Source of the DNA: Chlamydiales bacterium
Lineage (GTDB): Bacteria; Chlamydiota; Chlamydiia; Chlamydiales; JBDQID01
Assembly (NCBI GenBank): GCA_047611865.1
Contig: JBLFWS010000105.1
Location: 1-11,771 of the forward strand
Direction of reading: 5' to 3'
DNA: 11,771 nt
Below are positions 1 through 11,771 of this stretch, piece by piece; within the stretch, counting starts at the first letter, position 1, and the number at the start of each line of letters is the position of its first letter. The position numbers and the translations under genes were made by a program. The notes beneath the pieces were generated by a model. It was not told the origin of the DNA. It saw nothing but the letters and a program-made list of their open reading frames with translations, and did no database searches.

Positions 1-311
1 ATTTGTTCAGGGAGTAAAGAAGGGTTGATGGTATGACAGACCGCTTCGCTACAGGAGACTCCATAATACAATTCAAAGTGTCGGTAATCCGTCCATGCTA
101 ATGTGGCAACTCTATCCCCTGATCTCACACCTACACTGGATAATGCATTGGCTAATTTTCGTACTCGGCGAAAGGCTTCGGCATAGGTATAGCGATGTAA
201 TGGATTGTCCCGAGTAACAGAGACTATTTCACTATCCGAATATACCTTTTCGGCAAATTCCATAATTGATGTAAGCGTTAATTGAGTGTTCATCATTTGC
301 CCTGCTAACAT
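1..311 (-). CDS. Fatty-acid/acyl-CoA ligase, AlkK/DmdB-like (ANL adenylate-forming superfamily); N-terminal part only, runs off the window edge
   Basis: Manual translation from ATG at 311 gives MLAGQMMNTQLTLTSIMEFAEKVYSDSEIVSVTRDNPLHRYTYAEAFRRVRKLANALSSVGVRSGDRVATLAWTDYRHFELYYGVSCSEAVCHTINPSLLPEQ, open to base 1. GDRVATLAW..RH.E.YY and CHTINP are signatures of AlkK/DmdB-type ligases. GAGGA RBS at 316-320 (minus). Not in the ORF track because it is truncated. Confidence 0.9.
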   Translation of the reverse strand, partial: MLAGQMMNTQLTLTSIMEFAEKVYSDSEIVSVTRDNPLHRYTYAEAFRRVRKLANALSSVGVRSGDRVATLAWTDYRHFELYYGVSCSEAVCHTINPSLLPEQ

Positions 312-536
312 ATCATCCTCATAAGTCGTTTAAAAATTTTCCAATGCTTTTAACAGAACAAACTAATCTTGTAATCTATATTTTATGTCCTCCATAAGAT
401 GTGAATGAGATAAAGCTCTCCCTTGTAGTAGGAGTGGTCCTAGAACTCAGTTAAAGTAAGAGTTTTTTGCACAAATAGATATTGCTGTTTTACAGCTCAT
501 TCTGGCAAAATTTAGCTAGGAAGGTGGTGTTTTGCA

Positions 537-699
537 TATACCGACCTTGTGTCAAATTTGTGAATCGTAAACTGGGGATTTTCCTGAATGACTAAGTGTG
601 GAGATCTCAATAAACATAGGTATGTTATTGAGATCGAACACGACGCCATACTGAAAAAGACCAACTCACAATTCACAATTTTGACACAAGATCGGTATA
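537..699. mobile_element. MITE-like / palindromic repeat element (~163 bp) with 39-bp terminal inverted repeats and a central hairpin
   Basis: 537-575 TATACCGACCTTGTGTCAAATTTGTGAATCGTAAACTGG matches the reverse complement of 661-699 (TATACCGATCTTGTGTCAAAATTGTGAATTGTGAGTTGG) at 33/39. Both ends are TA. A second inverted repeat (603-635) sits at the centre. No credible coding capacity. Confidence 0.65.
603..635. repeat. Central inverted repeat/hairpin of the palindromic element
   Basis: GATCTCAATAA (603-613) is the exact reverse complement of TTATTGAGATC (625-635). The inner CATA/TATG pairing continues after a 1-nt bulge. Confidence 0.85.
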
Positions 700-718
700 A
701 CGCCACAAAAAATTATCA

Positions 719-742
719 ATGACAATTTACATGACAAATCTA
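719..742. promoter_or_regulatory. Tandem direct repeat ATGACAA-N5-ATGACAA upstream of the gshB-like gene; possible transcription-factor site
   Basis: ATGACAAtttac ATGACAAatcta has a 12-bp period, with a partial third copy ATGATC at 743. It reads TTGTCAT on the minus strand. It lies just upstream of the RBS AGGGAG (755-760). Confidence 0.3.
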
Positions 743-764
743 ATGATCTATTTTAGGGAGAAAT

Positions 765-1790
765 ATGAATATCTGCTTCATTATAAACGACTGGGAAGAG
801 TTTGACCCTGAAACGGATTCATCTTTAAGGATTATTCATGAGGCCGTAAGAAGAGAGCATGTCGTTGGAATTTTATATGCAAAAAACCTAACCGTTAGAA
901 ATAACGTCGTTTGTGGTTTTGTTAACATTATAGACTGTAAACAACCCGTAAATGAAAATGTAAGCATTTTTCACAAAAGAATGAAATTCAAGTCCCATCT
1001 ACTACCTTTGAGGGGCTTTGACACCATATTCCTTTCTAAAAACCCTCCTTTAGATTGGTTGATGGTAAACTTCCTTGATTCTCTTAAAAAAGACGTTTTT
1101 ATTGTTAACGATATCGATGGGATCCGAAAAGCGAACAATAAACTTTACACAACGACTTTTGAAGACTCTAATCAATTTATTCCAGAAACTCATGTTTCCA
1201 AAAACATAAAATATCTCGTCGATACGATTAAAGAATCCGATAAGAGCAAGTGGATACTCAAGCCATTGGTAGGTTTTGGTGGGCAAGGGGTTATCGTCTT
1301 AGAGAAAAAAGCTATGCAAAATATTCGTTCTCTACTGGAGTTCTATATCGACGGAGGAGATCGCAAAAACTACGTCATCCTGCAAGAATATGTTGATGGT
1401 GCTGAGGAAGGTGACGTTCGAGTCTTACTTCTGGGAGGGGAACCCATTGGTGCTATGCGCCGAGTTCCGGGAGAAGACGACCCACGTTCTAATATAAAAG
1501 CAGGTGGAAAAGCTATTAAACATACTCTCTCTAAACAAGAAATTTTGTTATGTAAGCATATTGGCCCCAAGCTCGTATCCGATGGTATCTATTTTGCCGG
1601 TTTGGATCTCATTAAAGGCAAGCTCCTTGAAGTGAATGTTCTCAGTCCTGGAGGAATAACTAGAATCAATCGCTTTAACCGATGCAAACTACAGCGTAAA
1701 GTACTTGATTACATAGAAGGTCACTTCCGAAAAGTGGATATATCGACTAAACAAAAAGCTGAATTCCGAAACTTGGTAATGAATGCTTAA
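765..1790 (+). CDS. gshB: Glutathione synthetase-like ATP-grasp ligase (prokaryotic GshB family, divergent subgroup)
   Basis: GshB motifs are present in order: DSSLRIIHEAVRR, KNPPLD, N.K in ANNKLY, PETHVS, ILKPLVGFGGQGV, ILQEY, GDVRVLLLGGEP, RRVP...DPRSNIKAGG, IGPKL...G..FAGLD, LLEVNVLSPGG. RBS AGGGAG lies 4 nt before the ATG. The actual substrate is not established. Confidence 0.85.
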   Translation: MNICFIINDWEEFDPETDSSLRIIHEAVRREHVVGILYAKNLTVRNNVVCGFVNIIDCKQPVNENVSIFHKRMKFKSHLLPLRGFDTIFLSKNPPLDWLMVNFLDSLKKDVFIVNDIDGIRKANNKLYTTTFEDSNQFIPETHVSKNIKYLVDTIKESDKSKWILKPLVGFGGQGVIVLEKKAMQNIRSLLEFYIDGGDRKNYVILQEYVDGAEEGDVRVLLLGGEPIGAMRRVPGEDDPRSNIKAGGKAIKHTLSKQEILLCKHIGPKLVSDGIYFAGLDLIKGKLLEVNVLSPGGITRINRFNRCKLQRKVLDYIEGHFRKVDISTKQKAEFRNLVMNA

Positions 1791-3783
1791 TTTATCCGTC
1801 GATGAAATTATTAAAAAGATCAGAAAGAAAGAGAGCTTTTCCGCTTTTTCGAAAGACGGTTCTTTCTCTATATCCATAGAAGAATATTCACCTTATATCT
1901 GCTCAGCCATACATCAGGGCTCCCAATTCCGCCCTGACTTGCTTCCTAAGATAGCCTTATCGAAGTTTGAAAGATGGCAAGAAGAGGACCCTCATACTGA
2001 AGATTTCATCTTACCTCTTCCAATACGAATTGTAGGTCTAGACTCAAGGTACGAATATGACCTTAATCGCAAACCCGCGGATTGTATTTATGACGTCGCT
2101 TGGGGAAAGAATGTCTGGGAGCAGCCCCCTTCGAAAAAGGATAAAGAACTTTCCTTACATAAACACAGCGAATTTTATCGAGTAATTGAAGTTCTCGTTG
2201 ACGTTATCGAGAAAATGTTCGGAGCCTGTATCGTCTACGATATCCATTCATACAACTACAAACGGATTAAAGATGTTAAGCCCCCTTTGTTTAACATTGG
2301 CTCTAAGAAAATAGACCAAAAGAAGTTTGGCCCTTTTGTAGAATCCTGGAAAGACCAATTATCCAAGATCGAAATTAACAATGTCGTAAATGAAACAGCA
2401 ATAAACAAAGTATTCAATGGAAATGGCTACTTCTTAGACTTCATTTCTTCAAGATTTAAAAACACCTTGGTTCTTGCGACTGAGGTCAAGAAAATCTATG
2501 TAGATGAGACTACAGGTGATATTTTCCCTGAAGTGATTAACGATATCCGTCTCGGATTAAAGAATGCTATCATTTCTCACGCCTCCGATTTCCTCGACAG
2601 ATACTCTAAAACAAAGTACCAGAAAAAACACGACCTCTTAAGTTCTGAACTAGATGAAGTTACAAAGTCCGTAGACTATTCGATTTTTAAACTTCTTCAA
2701 AATATCAGCTTCCTGGAATTCATAAATCCCAAAAACATAGAAACGGAAAAAAATTCTTTTTTTTCCTCTAATTTTAGAAAGGCTCCTAATTTTAAATATA
2801 GGCCAATTGATATTGATGTTCCTGAGTTAAAAAGAAAGCTGTACAGCTTGCCCATTCAGGATATTCCAGATCCTACCTTCCAAAAAATGTACCAAGAGAC
2901 TATTGATGGGCAGACTGAACAATTGGAAATGCTTTCTTTACGAGGAGACAACAAGTTTTTGTATTCTTCCTTGAAGTATTTTGGTGAACCAGAAAACATT
3001 GATATCTTAAATGCTAAGTTCATTCTCCATTGCAATAAGTTCAATTTCAATGATCAAGATTACGAGACAATGGATGCAAATGAGGTTGCTGATGAAGTAC
3101 GTCAGGTAATCAAAAAATACGGTTTTCGTTGCCAGGTTGAAATTTCTAAAAGGATCCCCAGCCGAGCTCTTTTTTCTCCAACAAAGCGAACCCTAAAAAT
3201 TAAAAGTGGTGAAACCTTTACTCGCTTATCCGCCAAAGCCTTAGGCCACCACGAAATTGGCGTTCATATGCTGACAACAGCAAATGCTATAAAGCAGCCA
3301 CTAAAAATACTAAGGGTAGGATTGCCCGTCAACACTTTGACTCAAGAAGGGCTGGCTATTTTAAGTGAGTACCTTTCAGGAACCTTAAATATTGAAAGAA
3401 TAAAAATGCTCGCCTATAGGGTACTTGCAGTAGAGCATATGATAAAGTATCAGAATTTCAACGAAACCTTTCTCTACCTTCTTGATGAATGTAAGTTAAA
3501 CCAGGACGATGCTTATTACTTATGCGTAAGAGTATATCGAAGTGGAGGATTCACAAAAGATTATCTTTATCTCCGAGGGTTTCGCATGATTATGGACTAC
3601 TATAAATCAGGAAAATCTCTAGATAATCTCCTACTAGGAAAAACAGCCTTGCCTTACCTGCCTGTTCTTGACGAATTGGTAAATCGTGGAATTTTGAAAC
3701 CTCCAGAATATATAACAGACTGTTTTCAAAAACCCGTTGAGGTTGACCCTGTTATGGCCTACATCGTTGACTGCCTTAAGTAA
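1783..3783 (+). CDS. Fusion: N-terminal N-formylglutamate amidohydrolase-like domain plus C-terminal DUF1704 / 'QEGLA motif' (MATCAP-like) zinc metallopeptidase domain
   Basis: The N-terminal ~35-265 aa carry FGase-family motifs SAIHQG, EEDPHT, SRYEYDLNR and YDIHSY. The C-terminal half has HEIGVH (3250-3267, HExxxH), QEGLA (3343-3357) and RVYRSGGFTKDYLYLRG. It overlaps the upstream gene by 8 bp (ATGCTTAA). Confidence 0.85.
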   Translation: MLNLSVDEIIKKIRKKESFSAFSKDGSFSISIEEYSPYICSAIHQGSQFRPDLLPKIALSKFERWQEEDPHTEDFILPLPIRIVGLDSRYEYDLNRKPADCIYDVAWGKNVWEQPPSKKDKELSLHKHSEFYRVIEVLVDVIEKMFGACIVYDIHSYNYKRIKDVKPPLFNIGSKKIDQKKFGPFVESWKDQLSKIEINNVVNETAINKVFNGNGYFLDFISSRFKNTLVLATEVKKIYVDETTGDIFPEVINDIRLGLKNAIISHASDFLDRYSKTKYQKKHDLLSSELDEVTKSVDYSIFKLLQNISFLEFINPKNIETEKNSFFSSNFRKAPNFKYRPIDIDVPELKRKLYSLPIQDIPDPTFQKMYQETIDGQTEQLEMLSLRGDNKFLYSSLKYFGEPENIDILNAKFILHCNKFNFNDQDYETMDANEVADEVRQVIKKYGFRCQVEISKRIPSRALFSPTKRTLKIKSGETFTRLSAKALGHHEIGVHMLTTANAIKQPLKILRVGLPVNTLTQEGLAILSEYLSGTLNIERIKMLAYRVLAVEHMIKYQNFNETFLYLLDECKLNQDDAYYLCVRVYRSGGFTKDYLYLRGFRMIMDYYKSGKSLDNLLLGKTALPYLPVLDELVNRGILKPPEYITDCFQKPVEVDPVMAYIVDCLK

Positions 3784-3793
3784 AAGTTATTTA

Positions 3794-3827
3794 GTAACGG
3801 AGGGGAGTTTACACTCCTTTCTGTTAC
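3794..3827 (+). terminator. Stable stem-loop 10 nt after the operon stop; probable terminator or 3' stabiliser
   Basis: GTAACGGAGGGGAGT-TTAC-ACTCCTTTCTGTTAC forms a 15-bp stem with 3 G:U pairs and a 4-nt loop. There is no canonical U-tract directly downstream. Confidence 0.6.
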
Positions 3828-3961
3828 CATCTGATAAAAATAGATGGTGCCTTCTCTGAACTGCCATATCTAACAACGGCCCTATTAAAGTTCCCTTTCC
3901 TTTCTTCCGATAATCCATCTACTTACACTTGCCTCATATAAAGTCAGATGGAGAATTATCA

Positions 3962-5605
3962 TTGAGTGATCCAATTTTACCAGATTCTGCTGCCCTCCCT
4001 CCTGAAGAACCATCTTTTTATTCTAATTCAGCAGAAAAAGATAAAACCGATAGCCATCTATCTCCAGCACATATTATTTGTACTCAGATTTATCAGAAAT
4101 GTTTAGCAGCTAATCACCATAAGCCTAAACCTTTACCTTTAGATTATCGCATTAAGGCAGGTCCAATAGAAGGCTCCAAATATGAGCGGCATACTGCATC
4201 ACTTATGCTCGCTCTTTCTACTGATACAGACACGAGTAAAATACTGGAAAATCTATCTACTCAAGAAAAAGAGTCTTTAACTACTCAGATGACTAACGTA
4301 TGTGCCTTTATTGAAAAGATGAAAGAAAAAGGTGAACTAAAACCTGGGAAATACAAGAGAGGGAGTCATCCCGATCCTCAGATCCCCGGCAAGACTACTT
4401 TCCTGGACTTTGGAGTCACTGTAGGAAAAGACGAGAGTGTTTACATTAGCTTGCCCAGCAAAGCAAGCCCTGCCTCTCCTACCTCCCCTGTTATAGGAAA
4501 AAAACTGGGAGCAGGTTTTAGCAAAGTAGCCAAAACCATCTTAAATTATAATTCTGCCACGGTAGACGCCAAGACCGTAGAAAAAAAAGTAAATAGTGAT
4601 GAAGTCAAAAGGTACGAAATTCTCCACAACCTCGAAGGAGGAGAGCGTTATAAAAAGTTTTTCAAGACCCATGCAAGTTACCCTTCGTCTCACACTAAGC
4701 AAATCATGGTTTTTAAAAAAGCCATAGGGAGAATGAACACTGTTTTTCATGGGCTTTCTTCAGAAGAAAAACAACAGGCTATATTAGGCCTGATGGAAAA
4801 TTTCTCTTGGCTACAAGAGCAGGGAATTTGCCACGGTGACCTCAAAGAAGATCAAATCCTTCTGCACCGAAATGAACAAGGAGAGATTGAGGTTGTAATC
4901 ATTGATCTCGGAGCATCGATAAAGAGAACAGCTGATGGAAAACTCGATCCAGATTGGCCTCACTCTGATACAACAGGAGCTTTCCAAGCACCTGAACACA
5001 ACCCGATTTTCCCCTCAGAAGTTTCTGAAAGCAAGGTTTCTCTGGCTTCAGAAAAATTCACTTTTGCTCTGATGCTTCTGAGGATCTACGGCCAAAAGCC
5101 TAATCCGACGCGCAATCAAATACCGGCCCAAAGGTTTGGGAGGTCATTTTCGAATTACTCATCATTTATAGGCAGACTCGGTATACCTTATGAAACTTTT
5201 AGCTATCTCGTAGAATGCCAACATATATTGAAGAAAGAAGCTCATGAGCTTTCCAATCAAGAAGAAGAAATGCGCATGCAGATTTTAGAAGATCAATTAG
5301 AAGAAAACCCAGGAAATTTATCTTCTGAAGAGAGGCAAGAAATTCTACAGCAGATCAAAAATCAGGTGGATCAGGAGCTAGAAAATGTATCTCTTGCTAT
5401 CGATGAATGTAATAGTCATATCTATGAGGATAGAAATGACATGGGCAGCTTATTTGATAACTTTGCATATGAGGCCAAAAAGGATCCATTCCTCAACATA
5501 ATCAAAGATCTGCTTCGGAAAGACCCTAATGCTCGACCCGATATGTCTACAGTAATTGAACAGTTCAAGACTCTTATGCAAGCTAACGCTAATCTTGAAC
5601 TGTGA
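3962..5605 (+). CDS. Atypical eukaryote-like (Hanks-type) Ser/Thr protein kinase domain protein; putative secreted effector
   Basis: Gly-loop LGAGFSKV (4505-4528), candidate beta3 Lys in VDAKT, catalytic loop HGDLKEDQILL (from 4832), DLG (4904-4912), APE (4988-4996) and C-terminal LLRKDPNARP. The start is uncertain: the ORF track uses TTG 3929, but the in-frame TTG at 3962 has GGAG (3950-3953) 8 nt upstream and gives MSDPILP... Confidence 0.8.
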   Translation: MSDPILPDSAALPPEEPSFYSNSAEKDKTDSHLSPAHIICTQIYQKCLAANHHKPKPLPLDYRIKAGPIEGSKYERHTASLMLALSTDTDTSKILENLSTQEKESLTTQMTNVCAFIEKMKEKGELKPGKYKRGSHPDPQIPGKTTFLDFGVTVGKDESVYISLPSKASPASPTSPVIGKKLGAGFSKVAKTILNYNSATVDAKTVEKKVNSDEVKRYEILHNLEGGERYKKFFKTHASYPSSHTKQIMVFKKAIGRMNTVFHGLSSEEKQQAILGLMENFSWLQEQGICHGDLKEDQILLHRNEQGEIEVVIIDLGASIKRTADGKLDPDWPHSDTTGAFQAPEHNPIFPSEVSESKVSLASEKFTFALMLLRIYGQKPNPTRNQIPAQRFGRSFSNYSSFIGRLGIPYETFSYLVECQHILKKEAHELSNQEEEMRMQILEDQLEENPGNLSSEERQEILQQIKNQVDQELENVSLAIDECNSHIYEDRNDMGSLFDNFAYEAKKDPFLNIIKDLLRKDPNARPDMSTVIEQFKTLMQANANLEL

Positions 5606-5637
5606 TCTAAGTCCCAGGTTTTCTAAGTAAAAATTCT

Positions 5638-6363
5638 TCATAGATAGAAGTGATAGAAATACTCCACTGAAGAGACCGAGTAGCCATTTTTTTTATAGAG
5701 ATTACAGGCGGGAATATTGTTTTTCTGTGTCACAACTACCCCCATCTCGTATCCATTTTTGATAAACCAGCCCTGTGCAGCTCGCACCAGAGTTTCTCCG
5801 TATTTTTTTCCCCTGTACTGAACGTCAACGGCTAATAAGTCAATACTCCCTTTTCCATTTTTATTTCCAAGAGTCACCATACCCGCGATGCTGCCCTTAT
5901 CTCGAATAACAAAAACCTCATCTGCAATTTCTTTGCTTAGGGATTTTCGTATCCAGGATTTATAGAGAGCTTCAAATTTCTCCCTTCCTATATTTTGGTC
6001 TACTGAAAAACGAGAATATTCACCACTTTGGATGGCAAGTTTTTCTAATTCACTTGCATCCATTGATGCCTCGTACTTTTCTATGAGGTCCGATAATGCA
6101 TAATGGCTAGGATTCAAGTTCTGTAAGTTTATTTCAAAGCTTGTTCTTCTATCTACAAGCTGACCATTAATACTTTGTATTACATCGAGTGAAACTTCTT
6201 TGTCTGCTGGCCAATAAACCAGCTTTACGTTTTCCCTATCCAAATCTGAAAGAACATTCCTTAACTGCTCCAGAGATAAATTTGGGATTAGAATTTTGGC
6301 TACTTTTACTCCAAAAAAATCCGTATCCCAATCAAGTATTAGATATTCCATAGATCGCTTCAA
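5638..6363 (-). CDS. wecD: GNAT acetyltransferase, WecD/RffC (dTDP-4-amino-4,6-dideoxy-hexose N-acetyltransferase)-like
   Basis: N-terminal LDWDTDFFG, SRF..D, LYKSWIRKS, acetyl-CoA motif LLAVDVQYRGKKYG, and V.TQKNNIPACNLYKKNGY are typical of WecD-like proteins. Starts at TTG 6363 (4 nt after the upstream stop) or at ATG 6351. Confidence 0.8.
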   Translation of the reverse strand: MKRSMEYLILDWDTDFFGVKVAKILIPNLSLEQLRNVLSDLDRENVKLVYWPADKEVSLDVIQSINGQLVDRRTSFEINLQNLNPSHYALSDLIEKYEASMDASELEKLAIQSGEYSRFSVDQNIGREKFEALYKSWIRKSLSKEIADEVFVIRDKGSIAGMVTLGNKNGKGSIDLLAVDVQYRGKKYGETLVRAAQGWFIKNGYEMGVVVTQKNNIPACNLYKKNGYSVSSVEYFYHFYL

Positions 6364-6367
6364 ACCC

Positions 6368-8668
6368 TTATAAAAAGGACTCTATTGTTTTCTCAAATTC
6401 ACCCACGTAAGCCTTCTCGTCAGCGATTTTTTCGTACTGGCGACGGGTATAAGACGACCACTCAGAGTGCATCCCCGAATCTTTAAGTAAGCTATTCGCC
6501 AAGTCTATATAGTCTTCCTGTTTCCCGGAATGGACCAGTCTGTCATCACCAAAATATGCTCCCCCTACACTGGAGCCACCCTGTGCCATTGACACCACTG
6601 GACATCCGCCAGCCATGGCATCAAGCATGCCAAAACCACTGCCCATGGGAAATTCGTTTAGATACAAGGCCATGGAACGAGAAAGATGCTTTGGATCAGC
6701 TTGAGCCCCTAGAAAGACCACTCTGTCAACGATCTCTGGCAAAAAACGGGCCCTCAATTCATCTGGGTTCCGCACTTCTCCCATAGGCATGTAATAGGAT
6801 TTTGAAGAGTCCTTCAGAATCTCGCTTATGCAGTGACACATACCCACTGTCAACCTATTCTCCAAATGATTGGAAATCGTTGTCAAAATAGTGGCATCCT
6901 CTGAAACACCGAAAAAGGATTTTTTTTCAGGCTCCCTATTCCATTTCTCCACATACTCTGCTGAGGGTACTATCACCTCTAGCTTTGTTCCGATACTATG
7001 ATAATAGTCGACCTGTTCAGGAGGTGGAGATTTTGGTGAGATGACGAGGTCAAAACCCTCGTAATTCAGATGACTGCTCAGTTGATAAAAAATGTGGACA
7101 GGTACATTTGATAACCGTGCGGTCAGAAGATTGATCGCATCGGACTCGTGAAAAATCGCTACATCAATTTCTTCTTCCCGTAACTTAATGGCCACTCTCT
7201 CTGCTGCTTCGTAGTAAGATCCTTTTGCAGAGTCTACATAGGTTTTAATTCCGTGGCTTTCATAGATGGTCAAATTATCCGATCCCCTTTCCAACGAGGA
7301 ACGAGACTGTAAAGGTAAAACCGGATATTCACTAGTTCTCTCTACCATGTATTCATTGCTGAAAAGATGCACTTCGTACTTATCTTGACAATGCCCCCTA
7401 AACAAAATCCTCATGAGTCTCTGGGGAGCATTATTGGAATCTATAATCTGAGGAACTATATGTGCTATACGGACTTTTCCCCTTTTGACAAAACGACGCT
7501 TATCTTTTCTACAAGGGATTTTCTCTAGTATTTCTCGAAAACTTTCCTTTTCCCATAAAGGTCGAAGGGGATTTTTATGAAAATCATACCATTTCTCAAT
7601 AGACAGCTTTACATGGTGAGCTATAGATCTGGACTCACCAAGGCGATCTGCCGCAATCAACCTATTAAGACCTTTTCCTATTCCGTAAAGATGGTCTCCC
7701 GCTGCTGATTCCATCTTCCTTTCTTTTATCACGTCCTTGATACATTCGGAAATACCCTTAATGAGGTCCTTTTCTTTATCCTTCAACAATTCGTATTCAT
7801 TAACGAATACGGGATAGAGCTCCCTATCATGGGCTTCACTCATTTTTTGGACCAAGAGCTGCTTGTTGGGGTAACAATCAAGCACAAGAATCAGGTGCTG
7901 CTTTTCAAGTAGACTTTTGTACAGGCCATCATCCAACAAGCAATTCCATAATGAAGTGCTATTGACAAAAACAAATATGGCCTCTTGTCCACACAAGGGT
8001 TCCAATATTTCTCCCCACCCCATTTCAAAAGCTTCCATAAAAATAAGAGGCTGCTTGCCTCCTCTTTTCGAGAGTTCCCTGATAACTCTCTCTCCTTCTG
8101 CATTTGAGGATACATACGTTAGGGGGTAAAGAGCTTTTTCGGGAGGGAGAAGAGGGCCTTTCATCAGGCTATAATAGAGCTCTGTCTCGCGCAGTTGAAA
8201 ATCAAGTCTCCTTTGGATATAGAGTATCCTTGCTAACAAACTCTGGTAGAGTGAATGGGGAACTCCCATCAAAGCCTCGTGTATTTCCTCTTGGGACAGA
8301 CGCCTTTGTAGCCTTTCACTCAACAGACAGCTAAACCACAAAGGCAAACTATCCTCCTGATTGCTAATATATGCCTGAAAAACCTCATCAGTGGATGCAA
8401 TAAGACCAGCGATTATCCCGTCGTTATTTAAAAACTCGCTATCCTCGCCATTTTCTTGAAGCAATTTAGCTAAATGTTTGTTTGTGATATGTGCATCCAG
8501 ACATGTGCCGTGAACCAAAGCATCGGCATAGTTGAAAACCGCACCGTCTCTAAGCCTTATGTTTGGACTTGGGAAGAGCTGACTGAGAGCCCGTGTTACA
8601 TAAGAAAAACGGCAATATTCCAAAAACTCAGACTCTTCTTCCCTAAAGGTCATGATTGGCTCTCCCAT
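6368..8668 (-). CDS. Large GT-B glycosyltransferase with GT41 (OGT/SPINDLY/HMW1C)-like C-terminal catalytic region and an unrecognised ~390-aa N-terminal region
   Basis: The C-terminal half follows the GT41 pattern: KVRIAHIVP, HCQDKYEVHLFS, VAIKLREEEIDVAIF, ARLSNVPVHI, DRVVFLG, LYLNEFPMGSGFGMLDAMAGGCPVVSM. An alternative ATG at 8653 (MTFRE) has GGAG 8 nt upstream. Confidence 0.7.
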   Translation of the reverse strand: MGEPIMTFREEESEFLEYCRFSYVTRALSQLFPSPNIRLRDGAVFNYADALVHGTCLDAHITNKHLAKLLQENGEDSEFLNNDGIIAGLIASTDEVFQAYISNQEDSLPLWFSCLLSERLQRRLSQEEIHEALMGVPHSLYQSLLARILYIQRRLDFQLRETELYYSLMKGPLLPPEKALYPLTYVSSNAEGERVIRELSKRGGKQPLIFMEAFEMGWGEILEPLCGQEAIFVFVNSTSLWNCLLDDGLYKSLLEKQHLILVLDCYPNKQLLVQKMSEAHDRELYPVFVNEYELLKDKEKDLIKGISECIKDVIKERKMESAAGDHLYGIGKGLNRLIAADRLGESRSIAHHVKLSIEKWYDFHKNPLRPLWEKESFREILEKIPCRKDKRRFVKRGKVRIAHIVPQIIDSNNAPQRLMRILFRGHCQDKYEVHLFSNEYMVERTSEYPVLPLQSRSSLERGSDNLTIYESHGIKTYVDSAKGSYYEAAERVAIKLREEEIDVAIFHESDAINLLTARLSNVPVHIFYQLSSHLNYEGFDLVISPKSPPPEQVDYYHSIGTKLEVIVPSAEYVEKWNREPEKKSFFGVSEDATILTTISNHLENRLTVGMCHCISEILKDSSKSYYMPMGEVRNPDELRARFLPEIVDRVVFLGAQADPKHLSRSMALYLNEFPMGSGFGMLDAMAGGCPVVSMAQGGSSVGGAYFGDDRLVHSGKQEDYIDLANSLLKDSGMHSEWSSYTRRQYEKIADEKAYVGEFEKTIESFL

Positions 8669-8670
8669 AA

Positions 8671-8696
8671 TCTAAGTTGTCTATTTAAAACTTAGA
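8671..8696. promoter_or_regulatory. Perfect 8-bp inverted repeat overlapping the -10/TSS; candidate operator
   Basis: TCTAAGTT (8671-8678), a 10-nt spacer, then AACTTAGA (8689-8696). Confidence 0.4.
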
Positions 8697-8722
8697 CTAT
8701 ACACAAAAGAAAAGGCTGTCAA
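8694..8722 (-). promoter_or_regulatory. Sigma70/sigma66-type promoter for the glycosyltransferase-GNAT pair
   Basis: On the minus strand, a perfect TTGACA (8722-8717) is followed by 17 nt and TAGTCT (8699-8694). An overlapping TATAGT sits at 15-nt spacing. It lies ~25-40 nt upstream of the candidate start codons. Confidence 0.6.
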
Positions 8723-8774
8723 GATAGCTCGTATAAGCCGCTCGGATGCCGCAGGATCTGGGCCTTTTTCGGGG

Positions 8775-11702
8775 TTAAAAGCGCCCCGAATTAAACCATG
8801 CAGAAGTTTTTCCATGCCATTGGGTAATTTCGCGCCCAAAAGCGGCCTCATGGTATTGAGTATTTCGGTGGTCTCTATCGTAATCAAATTTTGTACAGAA
8901 TTTTCCAAATACAGCATCTAGTCCAGAGTCGGGGTCTGTTCTATTTTTTAATTTCTGTTCTATAGCCGCTAGAATTTCCTTTTGAGTTTCAGTTTTCGAC
9001 ATCCACAAAATTAATTGCTGTTGCCTAACCCTATCCTTATCACCAATAGTAGCTTTTAATATTCTGTAAATGCTGCTGAACAGATCTCCGTAGCAAGCTT
9101 GCTGAACATTTTCATTAATGTTTTTAACTTCATTCTGTCCGCGATTTTCAGACCGAATACTCACTTCTCTGTAAGACCCTTTCTGGCCACTACGAGCTGA
9201 TCGGCCACTAATCTGAGTTTGGGTACGGGCATCATGAGGTTTGTAAGAACACAAGACGTGGAAACCGCTCTCAGCTGTCACGTGCCAATCGGTACCCCGT
9301 GCACCCAAAGCTGTAGTAATTACGATATCCCCTTCCTTATAAGAATCATTAATGACTCCCTCATCTTCTTTTCTGATGTACAGGGCTTTGGGAGAATAAA
9401 CTCTATCTTGCTGCGAATGTAAAAAGTCTCTCATCTCCATGGCTTCTTTAGGATTCTTGCATACTAAGAGAATAGCCTGATTGTCTCTCTTCTGACTAAT
9501 TTCCTTTAGTATACTTCTTTGCCAGCTAGCCCTACTTGTTGATTCAATAGCTTTCTCTTCAGTTTTCAGACTCTTGGTAAAGTCAGGAACAGCTGTCATT
9601 ACAGCTTTTTGAGACCCTTTGGTATAAACTTTTTCGATGAGTTTCTTGAAGTGCGTATATTCCTGACGATGCCCTTCTTTACTGGGTAGAGATCCTGTAA
9701 ATCCGACTACACAATCCGCGTCTCCAATAACGTCAAGCTGACTCTGTAGATCAAGCGCAGTCGTTGGTATCGTAACCGTTTTACCCGCATACTCTTTGTA
9801 TTCCAGAAACATATGGATAAGATTATTGAATTTCATATTCTCAACGATCATTGCGGTTCCGTCTTCTATGTAACGGATGTGATTTTGTACCAGGACATCT
9901 TTCATTTGCAATTCAGTCAAATCAGAGAATTCTCTCCTTCGTTGATCCAGCTGTTGTACTCTACCGTAAAGTTCCACCACTGCATCTTTAAAAGGCTTAT
10001 ATTTTGGGTCTCTTAATTCTTGAGAAATATTTTCTTCAGTCAATGCTACAATTAATCTTGGCATGTACTGAATCAGACTTTGTGTGTATTGCCTCACTCT
10101 CCCCGCTACCGGACTAGACTCATCTTGTATCGCCTGTAATTGTTCATGTAAGTTTAAGCCATCACCAGCTACATCACCTAGATACCTTTTAGAAGATGGC
10201 AATATTTCTCTATAAACATATCCCAGCTGAACGAACATGCCCTTCAGCTCATTTGCAATACTTGGCGCTTTAAGATAGTTCACTCCGTCTTGCCATTCGG
10301 GATCATTAGGCTTCATAACTTTCAGGGCGTCACTCACCCATTGATCAAATTCACCTTCCACGTACTCAAGAAGAAAAGGGTCCGGTTTTCCAGCTCTTAA
10401 AGCATCCATAACCTGAGTTTTAAGAGTTCTTTGGAGATCCTGTAACTGCCCCCTGTCAGGGGATGGATTGCTGCCATAGAATTCCAGTACGTTCTTTGCA
10501 ATGTGCTTTCCCACAGCTTTTATATCTTTGGCGTAAGGCATCATTATAGTGGATTGCACACGGCTGCCGGCATGGTCGTACAAGACAGAATCACATTCAT
10601 CAACTACAAAACAAAGACCTTTATGGAGCTCCTGAAGCCCTGGATATTTTACTTTAAGATATTGAATATGATCTTTAATTTCCCCTTCATTCGAAGCACT
10701 TGGAAGCTCTTGATATTGCTCCAATAGTCTGGTCGAAGGAGCAATGAACTGTTTGCAATCTTGATTTGCGGATCGTTGAAATGATCTAAGCAATTTTTGC
10801 AATGTCTCATTTGGACTATCCCAAATATCTAATTTTTGGGAGCCGTTCTTTTTCTTTGCTACTTTATCGCATTCTAAGCCAAATGGTGTTGAATAAATCA
10901 CATCAACATCTGCACTACTCGCTATGGCATCCCCTACAAACTTGCGCCCATCGAAACAGTCAACTCTAAGCCCACAGGCTTCATATAGTGCGCGCATTTC
11001 ACTGACACCAGAAATAGCTAGAGGCTCAGTGGTTGTGAGGATACAAACTTTTTCATTATATATCTTTTTTCTTGCGATTGCCGTCATCGCGGCGATAAGA
11101 GTTTTACCCTGACCCGTTTTGATTTGTGCTAAGGAGGTTTTCTTCCCATCAAGAAAAAGAAGAACGCTTAAAAGTTGGTTCGTTCTGGGACAGAACCCTT
11201 TAAGCTCTTTGACTTTTTCAGAGATTTGGGCAACTGCCTTACAAACTCTTTGATCATTTTCAGAAAGTCCTAAATCACGAACGAGCTCTGGAGAAGAACT
11301 GGATTCTTCCAATGCTTGGATGAAAACTAATTTTTTTCTTAGGGTATCAAGGTTTCTGTCACGAGGGTTTAGGACTTGATACTCCTTCATGGCCTTATCA
11401 TCTACTTTGTCTGCCAGTTGCTTCATATACTCAGGTAATGGAGAAAATTGAGGGTTTGTGAGGCCTACAGCAACTGCCAGTTCTTTGCCCATGCCAAACA
11501 GTAAAGAAGCCAGGTATCTACATGCCGGGGCGATAACTGTATGAAAAAAGGCCACTGCCAATTCCCCTACTCGTTTTGCCAGGGCTTCCACGTTTGTAGG
11601 GAAATTGGAATTGTCGTGATTATCGTTAGGGAGTCTTTGCTGCTGGGATAAAATAGGGGTCCCGATCGCTGTTGTGGGCTGTAGATTACTCAATGAGTTC
11701 AC
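8775..11702 (-). CDS. Highly divergent SecA-like SF2 ATPase (SecA DEAD-like NBD1/NBD2); probably not the housekeeping translocase
   Basis: SecA motifs occur in order: PRTNQLL, LAQIKTGQGKTL (TGQGKT 11100-11117), VCILTTTEPLA, DVIYST, VVDECDSVLYD (DECD 10590-10601), IHMFLEYKE, VGFTGS, AILLVC, GDIVITTALGARGTD, GFHVL, QISGRSARSGQKGS (GRSARSG 9186-9206). GTG start with a weak RBS. Confidence 0.8.
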   Translation of the reverse strand: MNSLSNLQPTTAIGTPILSQQQRLPNDNHDNSNFPTNVEALAKRVGELAVAFFHTVIAPACRYLASLLFGMGKELAVAVGLTNPQFSPLPEYMKQLADKVDDKAMKEYQVLNPRDRNLDTLRKKLVFIQALEESSSSPELVRDLGLSENDQRVCKAVAQISEKVKELKGFCPRTNQLLSVLLFLDGKKTSLAQIKTGQGKTLIAAMTAIARKKIYNEKVCILTTTEPLAISGVSEMRALYEACGLRVDCFDGRKFVGDAIASSADVDVIYSTPFGLECDKVAKKKNGSQKLDIWDSPNETLQKLLRSFQRSANQDCKQFIAPSTRLLEQYQELPSASNEGEIKDHIQYLKVKYPGLQELHKGLCFVVDECDSVLYDHAGSRVQSTIMMPYAKDIKAVGKHIAKNVLEFYGSNPSPDRGQLQDLQRTLKTQVMDALRAGKPDPFLLEYVEGEFDQWVSDALKVMKPNDPEWQDGVNYLKAPSIANELKGMFVQLGYVYREILPSSKRYLGDVAGDGLNLHEQLQAIQDESSPVAGRVRQYTQSLIQYMPRLIVALTEENISQELRDPKYKPFKDAVVELYGRVQQLDQRRREFSDLTELQMKDVLVQNHIRYIEDGTAMIVENMKFNNLIHMFLEYKEYAGKTVTIPTTALDLQSQLDVIGDADCVVGFTGSLPSKEGHRQEYTHFKKLIEKVYTKGSQKAVMTAVPDFTKSLKTEEKAIESTSRASWQRSILKEISQKRDNQAILLVCKNPKEAMEMRDFLHSQQDRVYSPKALYIRKEDEGVINDSYKEGDIVITTALGARGTDWHVTAESGFHVLCSYKPHDARTQTQISGRSARSGQKGSYREVSIRSENRGQNEVKNINENVQQACYGDLFSSIYRILKATIGDKDRVRQQQLILWMSKTETQKEILAAIEQKLKNRTDPDSGLDAVFGKFCTKFDYDRDHRNTQYHEAAFGREITQWHGKTSAWFNSGRF

Positions 11703-11771
11703 CTGGATTGAATTAATTTATTATGATATAGATTGTAATTATAGACGTAATACTTAAAGTAAGTTGTATAA

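Follow-up and report, generated by a model that had tools for sequence, protein, structure and literature searches.

Ligases of the GshB and RimK kind convert a carboxylate to an acyl phosphate and so link it to an amine, MATCAP enzymes remove C-terminal residues, and enzymes of the N-formylglutamate amidohydrolase (FGase) family split a small N-acyl group off glutamate. Two systems are known in which a cell combines a ligase with a hydrolase acting on the ligase product, RimK/RimB and glutathionylspermidine/trypanothione synthetase-amidase, the latter with "conflicting synthetic and hydrolytic activities" (PMC2427367). Here we describe a two-gene module carried by a Chlamydiales bacterium (assembly GCA_047611865.1, contig JBLFWS010000105.1, positions 1–11,771; this whole stretch of 11,771 nucleotides is referred to as the window). 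A gene for a GshB-like ATP-grasp ligase is followed, on the same strand, by a gene for a fusion of an FGase-like domain with a MATCAP-like, or QEGLA, metallo-carboxypeptidase domain. The two genes form a conserved unit, which we tentatively propose to handle a small carboxylate or peptide compound, i.e. a small glutamate-containing peptide or an acyl-amino acid, and not glutathione; routine glutathione synthesis by the module is unlikely.

An initial annotation made from the sequence alone had described the two genes as overlapping by 8 bp, and both the open reading frames (ORFs) and the sequence bear this out: in the stretch 1776–1790, the ATG of the fusion sits within the final codons of the ligase, ahead of its TAA. 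The same annotation mentioned similar neighbourhoods in other bacteria. A scan of the genome_contigs collection matched 600 stretches, of which 595 were confirmed, and the 80 best loci were retained; as the scan patterns were drawn from the FGase part of the fusion, this sample favours FGase-carrying forms. The ligase lies upstream of the hydrolase, on the same strand, in 78 of the 80 loci (tblastn), with a gap shorter than 100 bp in 73 of them and of 0.9–1.9 kb in five; tblastn did not find it beside the fusion in the other two, L036 and L071. The upstream gene of L036, on the opposite strand, encodes an AAA_15/AAA_21 (AbiEii-type) ATPase, and that of L071 a TPR-like protein. According to their titles, the loci come from Bacteroidota, Bacteriovoracaceae/Bdellovibrionota, Gammaproteobacteria, Comamonadaceae, Spirochaetia, Verrucomicrobiales, Fibrobacterota and Chlamydiales. 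When their 1036 ORFs were clustered, the ligase and the fusion were the only families present in more than nine loci, and no third conserved gene was seen around the pair in the 80 loci. Of the 35 pairs that could be mapped cleanly, 34 show an overlap of stop and start (8 bp in 24 pairs, 20 bp in eight and 14 bp in two). Moreover, the pairwise distances of ligases and fusions are correlated (r = 0.88, a value reached in none of 2000 label permutations), which indicates inheritance as a unit, not physical contact.

The linkage is very strongly conserved, split and reordered forms included. In nine Flavobacteriaceae loci, the FGase is encoded by a separate gene of ~276 codons ahead of a MATCAP-only gene, and on rhizobial chromids the gene order is FGase, QEGLA, ligase (Shinella, where it is annotated, Sinorhizobium meliloti R14 and pSymB of S. 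meliloti 2011, where tblastn shows the adjacency). In the 11 plasmid records listed for both proteins, the ligase lies at most ~110 bp from the hydrolase. The fused FGase and MATCAP architecture, ~665 residues long, gave 706 matches at E ≤ 0.001 among 7999 scored candidates, and 119 of the 120 fusion matches listed carry both domains, the last one being a 416-residue piece. There is one counter-example, a Pseudoalteromonas QEGLA gene with neither ligase nor FGase adjoining; it encodes a stand-alone protein of 426 residues that exceeds the TIGR02421 cut-off, directly after a redoxin-family gene (chromid locus L083, 5028–7254). A fusion of ligase and hydrolase was not seen among the longer ligase-containing proteins searched, which is weak evidence. 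At locus L074, a separate ORF of 173 residues (9471–9989) corresponds to the C-terminal half of the MATCAP model (184–357 of 365, 9.8e-57) while the tblastn alignment of the fusion spans 8001–9929, probably owing to a frameshift or to an assembly error in this metagenome-assembled genome (MAG). Altogether, the ligase and the fusion constitute a conserved two-gene unit and not a chance association.

The ligase of the window (P0001) is GshB-like, yet apart from canonical GshB. Pfam recognizes both GSH-S_N and GSH-S_ATP in it, and its AlphaFold2 (AF2) model (predicted local distance difference test, pLDDT, 86.3; predicted template-modelling score, pTM, 0.83) ends in a long C-terminal helix (residues 309–340). 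The best Foldseek match of this model in the PDB is E. coli GshB with bound glutathione (1gsa, E = 6.5e-25, template-modelling score TMt 0.87), followed by RimK (~0.79, including 5zk6 with bound RpsF, TMt 0.79) and then by LysX/ArgX. Despite only 29.3% identity, it aligns to the catalytic and Mg/ATP residues of the E. coli enzyme (K125, K160, R210, R225, N235, D273, E281 and N283), and the columns common to the family and to canonical GshB at a level of at least 90% include K125, K160, G167, Q198, D208, R210, R225, N235, D273, E281 and N283. We had considered reading a small substrate from the GshB lid loop; this argument was dropped, as RimK aligns across the same region without a large deletion.

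Family models place the protein outside the gshB equivalogs, in agreement with the initial annotation, which had set it apart from routine glutathione synthesis. It scores below both gshB cut-offs (261.6 vs. 272 bits for PRK05246 and 219.7 vs. 299.05 for TIGR01380), whereas E. coli GshB reaches 496.2 and 464.4, respectively. Its best NCBIfam model is PRK12458, matched over the full length with 378.5 bits, below the cut-off of 408; E. coli GshB scores 222 on this model. All six relatives scanned from the family clade or from the module pass PRK12458 (five with 420.8–483.7 bits and the Shinella ligase with 460). The marks of PRK12458 membership present in the window ligase are its clade, the signature Asn and Gly residues described below and the pairing with FGase and QEGLA genes. 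The same five family members also score 280–300 on PRK05246, just over its cut-off, which accounts for the "glutathione synthase" names in the source records: among the 120 ligase matches listed, all names are of this kind but one ("hypothetical protein"). As regards the other ligase classes, P0001 has a Pfam RimK domain match (2.2e-17) and lies under the RimK family cut-off (82 vs. 143.4 for TIGR00768), and there is no match to the tubulin tyrosine ligase (TTL) family PF03133 at E ≤ 0.01.

Only three columns discriminate 120 family sequences from 101 canonical-side sequences, in which E. coli E124, D177 and T288 are replaced by Asn, Ala and Gly, respectively. The first position holds Glu in 100 of the 101 canonical-side sequences and Asn in 117 of the 120 family members, and the third holds Thr in 74 of the 101 and Gly in all 120. 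Both rhizobial ligases checked share the Asn and the Gly, and not the Ala, at 29% identity to P0001. A fourth position concerns the window itself: R86 of the E. coli enzyme is Arg in 101/101 canonical-side sequences and in 114/120 family members, while Ser or Thr occurs there solely in the window ligase and the five relatives nearest to it. This residue, S91, is the sole departure of P0001 from the family consensus drawn at a level of at least 93%. Among 1.84 billion representatives, the ligase family amounts to about one cluster at 50% identity (P0246, 58% identity, 421 bits), beyond which lie a few intermediates at 40–47% and then a continuum at ~30–38%. In a FastTree phylogeny built from 156 sequences (E. 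coli GshB, 30 family members out of 120, and those 125 of the 150 representatives with a length of 295 residues or more), the family clade has a support of 0.875 and is nested among other non-canonical GshB-like proteins. On these alignments, the ligase is a separate GshB lineage in which the predicted catalytic equipment is kept.

The partner protein (P0002) carries the FGase-like and DUF1704 domains, with HEIGVH and QEGLA motifs, that had been read from its translation. It scores 45 bits with the Pfam FGase model (gathering threshold, 28.9) and 328.8 with MATCAP (PF08014, formerly DUF1704; threshold, 27). It passes the NCBIfam QEGLA model TIGR02421 (360.9 vs. a cut-off of 338.65) and remains far below the cut-off of the HutG equivalog TIGR02017 (15.4 vs. 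278.75). The AF2 model has a pLDDT of 92.0 and a pTM of 0.89, which suggests a defined mutual arrangement of the two domains. In Foldseek searches, the C-terminal half retrieves human MATCAP (7z5g, E = 1.5e-9, TMt 0.70) and the N-terminal half an N-formylglutamate amidohydrolase (2q7s, E = 1.8e-8, TMt 0.70) and also 2odf (Atu2144), with M14 carboxypeptidases lower in the list. The HEIGVH motif aligns with HEIGTH of human MATCAP and QEGLA with EEGLA. In the microtubule-bound MATCAP entry 7z6s, the catalytic Glu is a Gln, and the MATCAP variant E281A is catalytically dead (PMC10499314). Tyrosine carboxypeptidase activity on tubulin tails is reported for the human enzymes only (PMC10499314).

Within the HEIGVH and QEGLA motifs, H490, E491, G493, H495, E522, G523 and A525 are invariant in 22 relatives of the fusion. 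Across 119 sequences, 89 positions spread over both domains reach a conservation of 97% or more, among them H44, E67, E68, D69, D153 and H155 of the FGase part and H490, E491, H495, Q521 and E522 of the MATCAP part. As judged from this conservation, strong constraint acts on both hydrolase sites. The NCBI name "flavohemoglobin expression-modulating" traces to P. aeruginosa PA3697 (Koskenkorva et al. 2008, via PMC8070244).

Published data on two carriers of the module argue against a housekeeping role in glutathione synthesis. A transcriptome study (RNA-seq) of Photobacterium damselae at 1% versus 3% NaCl (PMC10308900), which uses the term "QEGLA", reports a 38.4-fold increase at 1% NaCl for A0J47_RS17020, a "glutathione synthase" gene of 1029 bp, and a 27.5-fold increase for A0J47_RS17025, which encodes a QEGLA protein of the fused form (1983 bp). 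RS17025 overlaps RS17020 by 17 bp, and the two are the fused-form module pair of this organism. Two other genes named "glutathione synthase", RS03915 (948 bp) and RS17230 (1443 bp), each show a 1.6-fold decrease in the same comparison, while RimK, the S6 glutamate ligase, is induced 52-fold and polyamine genes are also up (PMC10308900). The authors treat RS17020 as GshB, the glutathione synthetase; the induced gene is, however, the module paralogue on chromosome II, whereas the 948-bp gshB on chromosome I is slightly down. The second carrier is S. meliloti 2011, in which a gshB mutant is without glutathione (PMC7063052) and pSymB carries the module, which indicates that cultured cells do not obtain their glutathione from the module ligase.

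The genes that surround the module vary. Polyamine genes (arginine decarboxylase, agmatinase, deoxyhypusine-synthase-like) adjoin it in 8 of the 80 loci, mostly on the same strand (L020, L021, L026, L032, L045, L049, L050 and L075). In another eight, a Na:dicarboxylate symporter gene immediately precedes the module on the same strand (the one that was scanned matches PF00375 at 3.9e-130). These eight are split-form Flavobacteriaceae loci (L056, L057, L059, L062, L068, L070, L072 and L073), in which the symporter gene is just upstream of that of the ligase, and a rhodanese gene lies between the ligase and FGase genes in four of them. A thioredoxin-like gene is found in six of the 80 loci, rhodanese in five, and an MscS-type channel in four (L001, L032, L045 and L076); an Lrp/AsnC regulator is upstream in two loci and a major facilitator superfamily (MFS) transporter in one, BshC together with DinB_2 occur in one, and a pyridine-nucleotide disulfide oxidoreductase in one. 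No histidine-utilisation genes were found near the module. This context and the low-salt induction fit a role in glutamate, polyamine or thiol economy during osmotic change, and single out no single compound.

We propose the following scheme. Starting from a small peptide that contains glutamate, or from an N-acyl amino acid, the ligase would activate the C-terminal carboxylate with ATP and would join an amine or amino acid to it. The fusion, a predicted rigid protein with two intact metallo-amidohydrolase sites, would dismantle such a compound in two steps. The MATCAP-like site would take off the C-terminal residue, after which the FGase-like site would split the leftover N-acyl-glutamate-type amide. 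Ligase and fusion together would set the level of the compound, like glutathionylspermidine synthetase-amidase or RimK/RimB. We infer the small-molecule substrate, the order of the hydrolytic steps and the action of ligase and hydrolases on one and the same compound. A small molecule is preferred over a protein tail because the N-domain and structure of the ligase are of the GshB type, because the substrate after which the FGase family is named is, according to the family description, a small N-acyl-glutamate, and because no target gene travels with the pair; these three reasons are not decisive.

Several points weigh against this proposal. The metal-binding residues of the FGase-like domain are presumed from the fold. 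The hints from genomic context are heterogeneous, each being confined to a minority of the 80 loci, and with R86 lost, the window copy may not be representative of the family. To express a ligase along with hydrolases that act on the ligase product would, unless regulated, amount to a futile cycle, and no regulator of the module was found. The only enzymes of the MATCAP family known to be characterised act on protein tails (PMC10499314, 7z6s). The S. meliloti result could also mean that the pSymB gene is not expressed in culture, and the published datasets concern relatives, whose ligases are 57% (a sequence from the genus Photobacterium, not the strain's own) and 29% identical to that of the window. 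Finally, titles and abstract openings in the literature yielded no functional characterisation of a bacterial member, and no substrate or product.

In a first alternative, the ligase would extend the C-terminal tail of some bacterial protein by one or more residues, e.g. Glu or Tyr, which the MATCAP-like and FGase-like domains would trim. The homology of the fusion to the MATCAP family, its intact HExxxH...E site and its fold all speak for such a cycle, given that the characterised family members are tubulin-tail carboxypeptidases (PMC10499314). So do the second-best structural class of the ligase, RimK (5zk6, with RpsF), and the next, LysX/ArgX, which modify the tail of LysW. RimB removes Glu from polyglutamylated RpsF, and RimB–RimK hybrids exist (PMC11957791); RimK is also induced at low salt in P. 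damselae, like the module (PMC10308900). On the other hand, both the N-domain and the closest fold of the ligase are of the GshB type, its score is below the RimK cut-off and the TTL model does not match it. No third gene conserved in the 80 loci offers itself as a target, and the named FGase substrate is a small molecule. We consider this alternative unlikely. The initial annotation had suggested a ligation/removal cycle acting on a protein C-terminus or on a small peptide or storage polymer, parallel to TTL/MATCAP. Our observations support a module for ligation and removal and lean towards the small peptide, and nothing supports a protein C-terminus ending in Glu or Tyr as its target; the parallel to TTL/MATCAP is an analogy.

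A second alternative, also unlikely in our view, places the enzymes in series in a salvage or catabolic route, where a glutamyl peptide or acyl-amino acid, once imported, would be trimmed by the hydrolases and one of the fragments re-used by the ligase. Such a route would make sense of co-transcribed opposing enzymes, which are otherwise wasteful, and would fit the dicarboxylate symporter upstream of the split forms as well as the MFS transporter and the Lrp/AsnC regulators. Transporters are, however, present at a minority of loci only, the core comprises just two genes in most genomes, and neither a signal peptide nor a periplasmic component was apparent when the N-termini were judged by eye without a predictor.

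Third, the ligase might be a real glutathione (or gamma-Glu-Cys-X) synthetase associated with a degrader of glutathione-type peptides, for thiol-peptide turnover or for salvage where gamma-Glu-Cys or glutathione is taken up. The GshB fold with all its catalytic residues, the family members that exceed the PRK05246 cut-off, the thiol and sulfur genes adjoining some loci (thioredoxin-like, rhodanese, BshC with DinB_2, disulfide oxidoreductase) and the redoxin gene beside the stand-alone Pseudoalteromonas QEGLA gene are all in keeping with this possibility. The window ligase nevertheless fails to reach the cut-off of either gshB equivalog, the family at large has other residues in place of E124 and T288, and the window clade lacks R86 as well. 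P. damselae has a separate gshB that is regulated oppositely, and the S. meliloti gshB mutant lacks glutathione despite its module. Consistent with the initial annotation, no glutamate-cysteine-ligase domain was found by Pfam in any of the seven window ORFs, and E. coli GshA had no tblastn match on the window; nor was an E. coli-type gshA found by tblastn in the window and 84 related loci (1.2 Mb in total), a search that covers one gshA lineage and local DNA. We regard this third alternative as quite improbable. Finally, it is very doubtful that the pair foreshadows, in bacteria, the tubulin tyrosination/detyrosination cycle, with the ligase and the MATCAP-type carboxypeptidase reversibly editing a protein C-terminus, and that it was retargeted in the intracellular chlamydial lineage, whose ligase alone has lost R86, conceivably to host proteins such as tubulin tails.

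The features of the module in the window are collected in Table 1.

Table 1. Features of the ligase–hydrolase module, in positions of the window.
Feature	Position	Strand	Basis
GshB-like ATP-grasp ligase P0001, 341 residues, subfamily PRK12458	765..1790	+	ORF, Pfam, NCBIfam, AF2, Foldseek
GSH-S_N type N-terminal (substrate-side) domain, ligase residues 1–121	765..1127	+	PF02951, 1.2e-17
S91 codon, ligase (E. coli R86 position)	1035..1037	+	alignment
ATP-grasp domain, ligase residues 125–305	1137..1679	+	PF02955 GSH-S_ATP, 3.8e-51
N125 codon, ligase subfamily signature (E. coli E124 position)	1137..1139	+	alignment
G296 codon, ligase subfamily signature (E. coli T288 position)	1650..1652	+	alignment
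Overlap of ligase stop and fusion start, 8 bp, translational coupling	1783..1790	+	ORFs and sequence
Two-domain hydrolase P0002, 666 residues, FGase-like and MATCAP/QEGLA-like	1783..3783	+	ORF, Pfam, NCBIfam, AF2, Foldseek
FGase-like (N-formylglutamate amidohydrolase family) domain, fusion residues 36–213	1888..2421	+	PF05013, 1.8e-11
MATCAP/DUF1704/QEGLA metallo-carboxypeptidase-like domain, fusion residues 325–663	2755..3771	+	PF08014, 5.1e-98
HEIGVH (HExxxH) motif, fusion residues 490–495	3250..3267	+	motif, conservation
QEGLA motif, fusion residues 521–525	3343..3357	+	motif, conservation
Pair of neighbouring hairpins 3' of the stop codon, stems of 13 bp and 8 bp, without T-tract	3796..3848	+	folding

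The strong hairpin initially noted at the end of the pair is present. A 13-bp stem at 3796–3825 is followed by the 8-bp hairpin, with a minimum free energy of -25.3 kcal/mol (z = -3.92; one of 200 shuffles folds as well); no T-run follows, and the structure is absent from the list returned by the terminator scan. A promoter scan gave two sigma-70-like matches at 719–754, just 5' of the ligase gene, and its total was not above that of shuffled sequences (8 vs. 11.2). Rfam detected no riboswitch or leader in the window and eight loci, the only match being RNase P in L007. Neither P0001 nor P0002 matches a defence-system family of PADLOC-DB.

The closest locus, L001, belongs to a Chlamydiales MAG, with 84% identity for the ligase and 77% for the fusion; it shares the pair with the window, and not the flanking genes. 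The proportion of nonsynonymous differences (pN) between the two is 0.09 for the ligase and 0.14 for the fusion, and that of synonymous differences (pS) is saturated at 0.8, so that it can only be stated that pN is much lower than pS, which indicates that both genes are maintained under purifying selection. In L001, a gene for an MscS-family channel overlaps the end of the fusion gene and is followed by one for a CitMHS/TrkA_C transporter (3353–7339). In the window, the place directly downstream is taken by a 558-residue ORF with a TTG start (3929–5605, + strand), which has a divergent kinase domain (Pfam Pkinase, 1.9e-10), weak PADLOC matches to mad6 and MkoA kinases and no PDB sequence match; with an MscS-like channel in its place in L001, this ORF is not kept beside the module.

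The remaining window genes lie on the other strand. At 5638–8668, a GNAT acyltransferase, weakly WecD/RffC-like (88.6 bits vs. 219), is encoded beside a 766-residue protein with a C-terminal GT1-type glycosyltransferase region; the two are possibly a sugar-modification pair. A 975-residue protein (8775–11702) has a SecA_DEAD-like/DEAD helicase N-terminal region (6.7e-15); its assignment as SecA was rejected, the score being 55 bits vs. SecA cut-offs of 800 or more. A partial ORF at 3–311, off the window edge, corresponds to the N-terminal 103 residues of an AMP-forming acyl-CoA ligase, with 3-(methylthio)propionyl-CoA ligase as the best model (3.5e-37).

The naming of these proteins has consequences. 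Hundreds of genomes label the ligase "glutathione synthase", and if its product is a different one, wrong conclusions are drawn on the glutathione metabolism of Bacteroidota, Bdellovibrionota, Chlamydiae and others; the reading of a 38-fold induction as that of GshB in PMC10308900 exemplifies this effect. The fusion represents, in bacteria, the MATCAP family, for which the trimming of tubulin tails is the sole chemistry known, and a bacterial substrate would show the origin of the enzyme and the role of the fused FGase domain. The module is small, strongly conserved and induced at low salt in Photobacterium, so that its function is directly testable.

In conclusion, the module is made of annotated families and is of the ligase-plus-cognate-hydrolase kind, with no function described in the titles and abstract openings covered by our literature search. 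Compared to E. coli GshB (1gsa), the ligase shows the same three-domain ATP-grasp fold, with GSH-S_N and GSH-S_ATP and the catalytic, Mg and ATP residues; it differs by its longer C-terminal helix, by its constant pairing with the hydrolase and by the absence of an E. coli-type gshA nearby. The N-terminal half of the fusion shares its fold (2q7s, TMt 0.70) and Pfam membership (PF05013) with HutG, whereas the protein is far below the HutG equivalog cut-off and has no histidine-utilisation genes around it. As in the TTL/MATCAP cycle (TMCP1, KIAA0895L), an ATP-grasp ligase is opposed by a PF08014 HExxxH carboxypeptidase, but the ligase is of the GshB and not the TTL type, the carboxypeptidase is fused to an FGase-like domain that the human enzyme lacks, with ~20% identity between the two, and the hosts are bacteria without tubulin tails. 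RimK/RimB (RimABK, S6 polyglutamylation) likewise links a ligase genetically to a peptidase that undoes the ligation, hybrid fusions included (PMC11957791), and RimK is the second-best fold class of the module ligase, which is nevertheless under the RimK family cut-off. Glutathionylspermidine/trypanothione synthetase-amidase couples a C:N ligase of ATP-grasp fold to an amidase acting on its own small product (PMC2427367), and the flanking polyamine genes in 8 of the 80 loci add to this likeness; there, a CHAP cysteine peptidase is fused to the synthetase, whereas in the module two metallo-hydrolase domains reside on a separate polypeptide.

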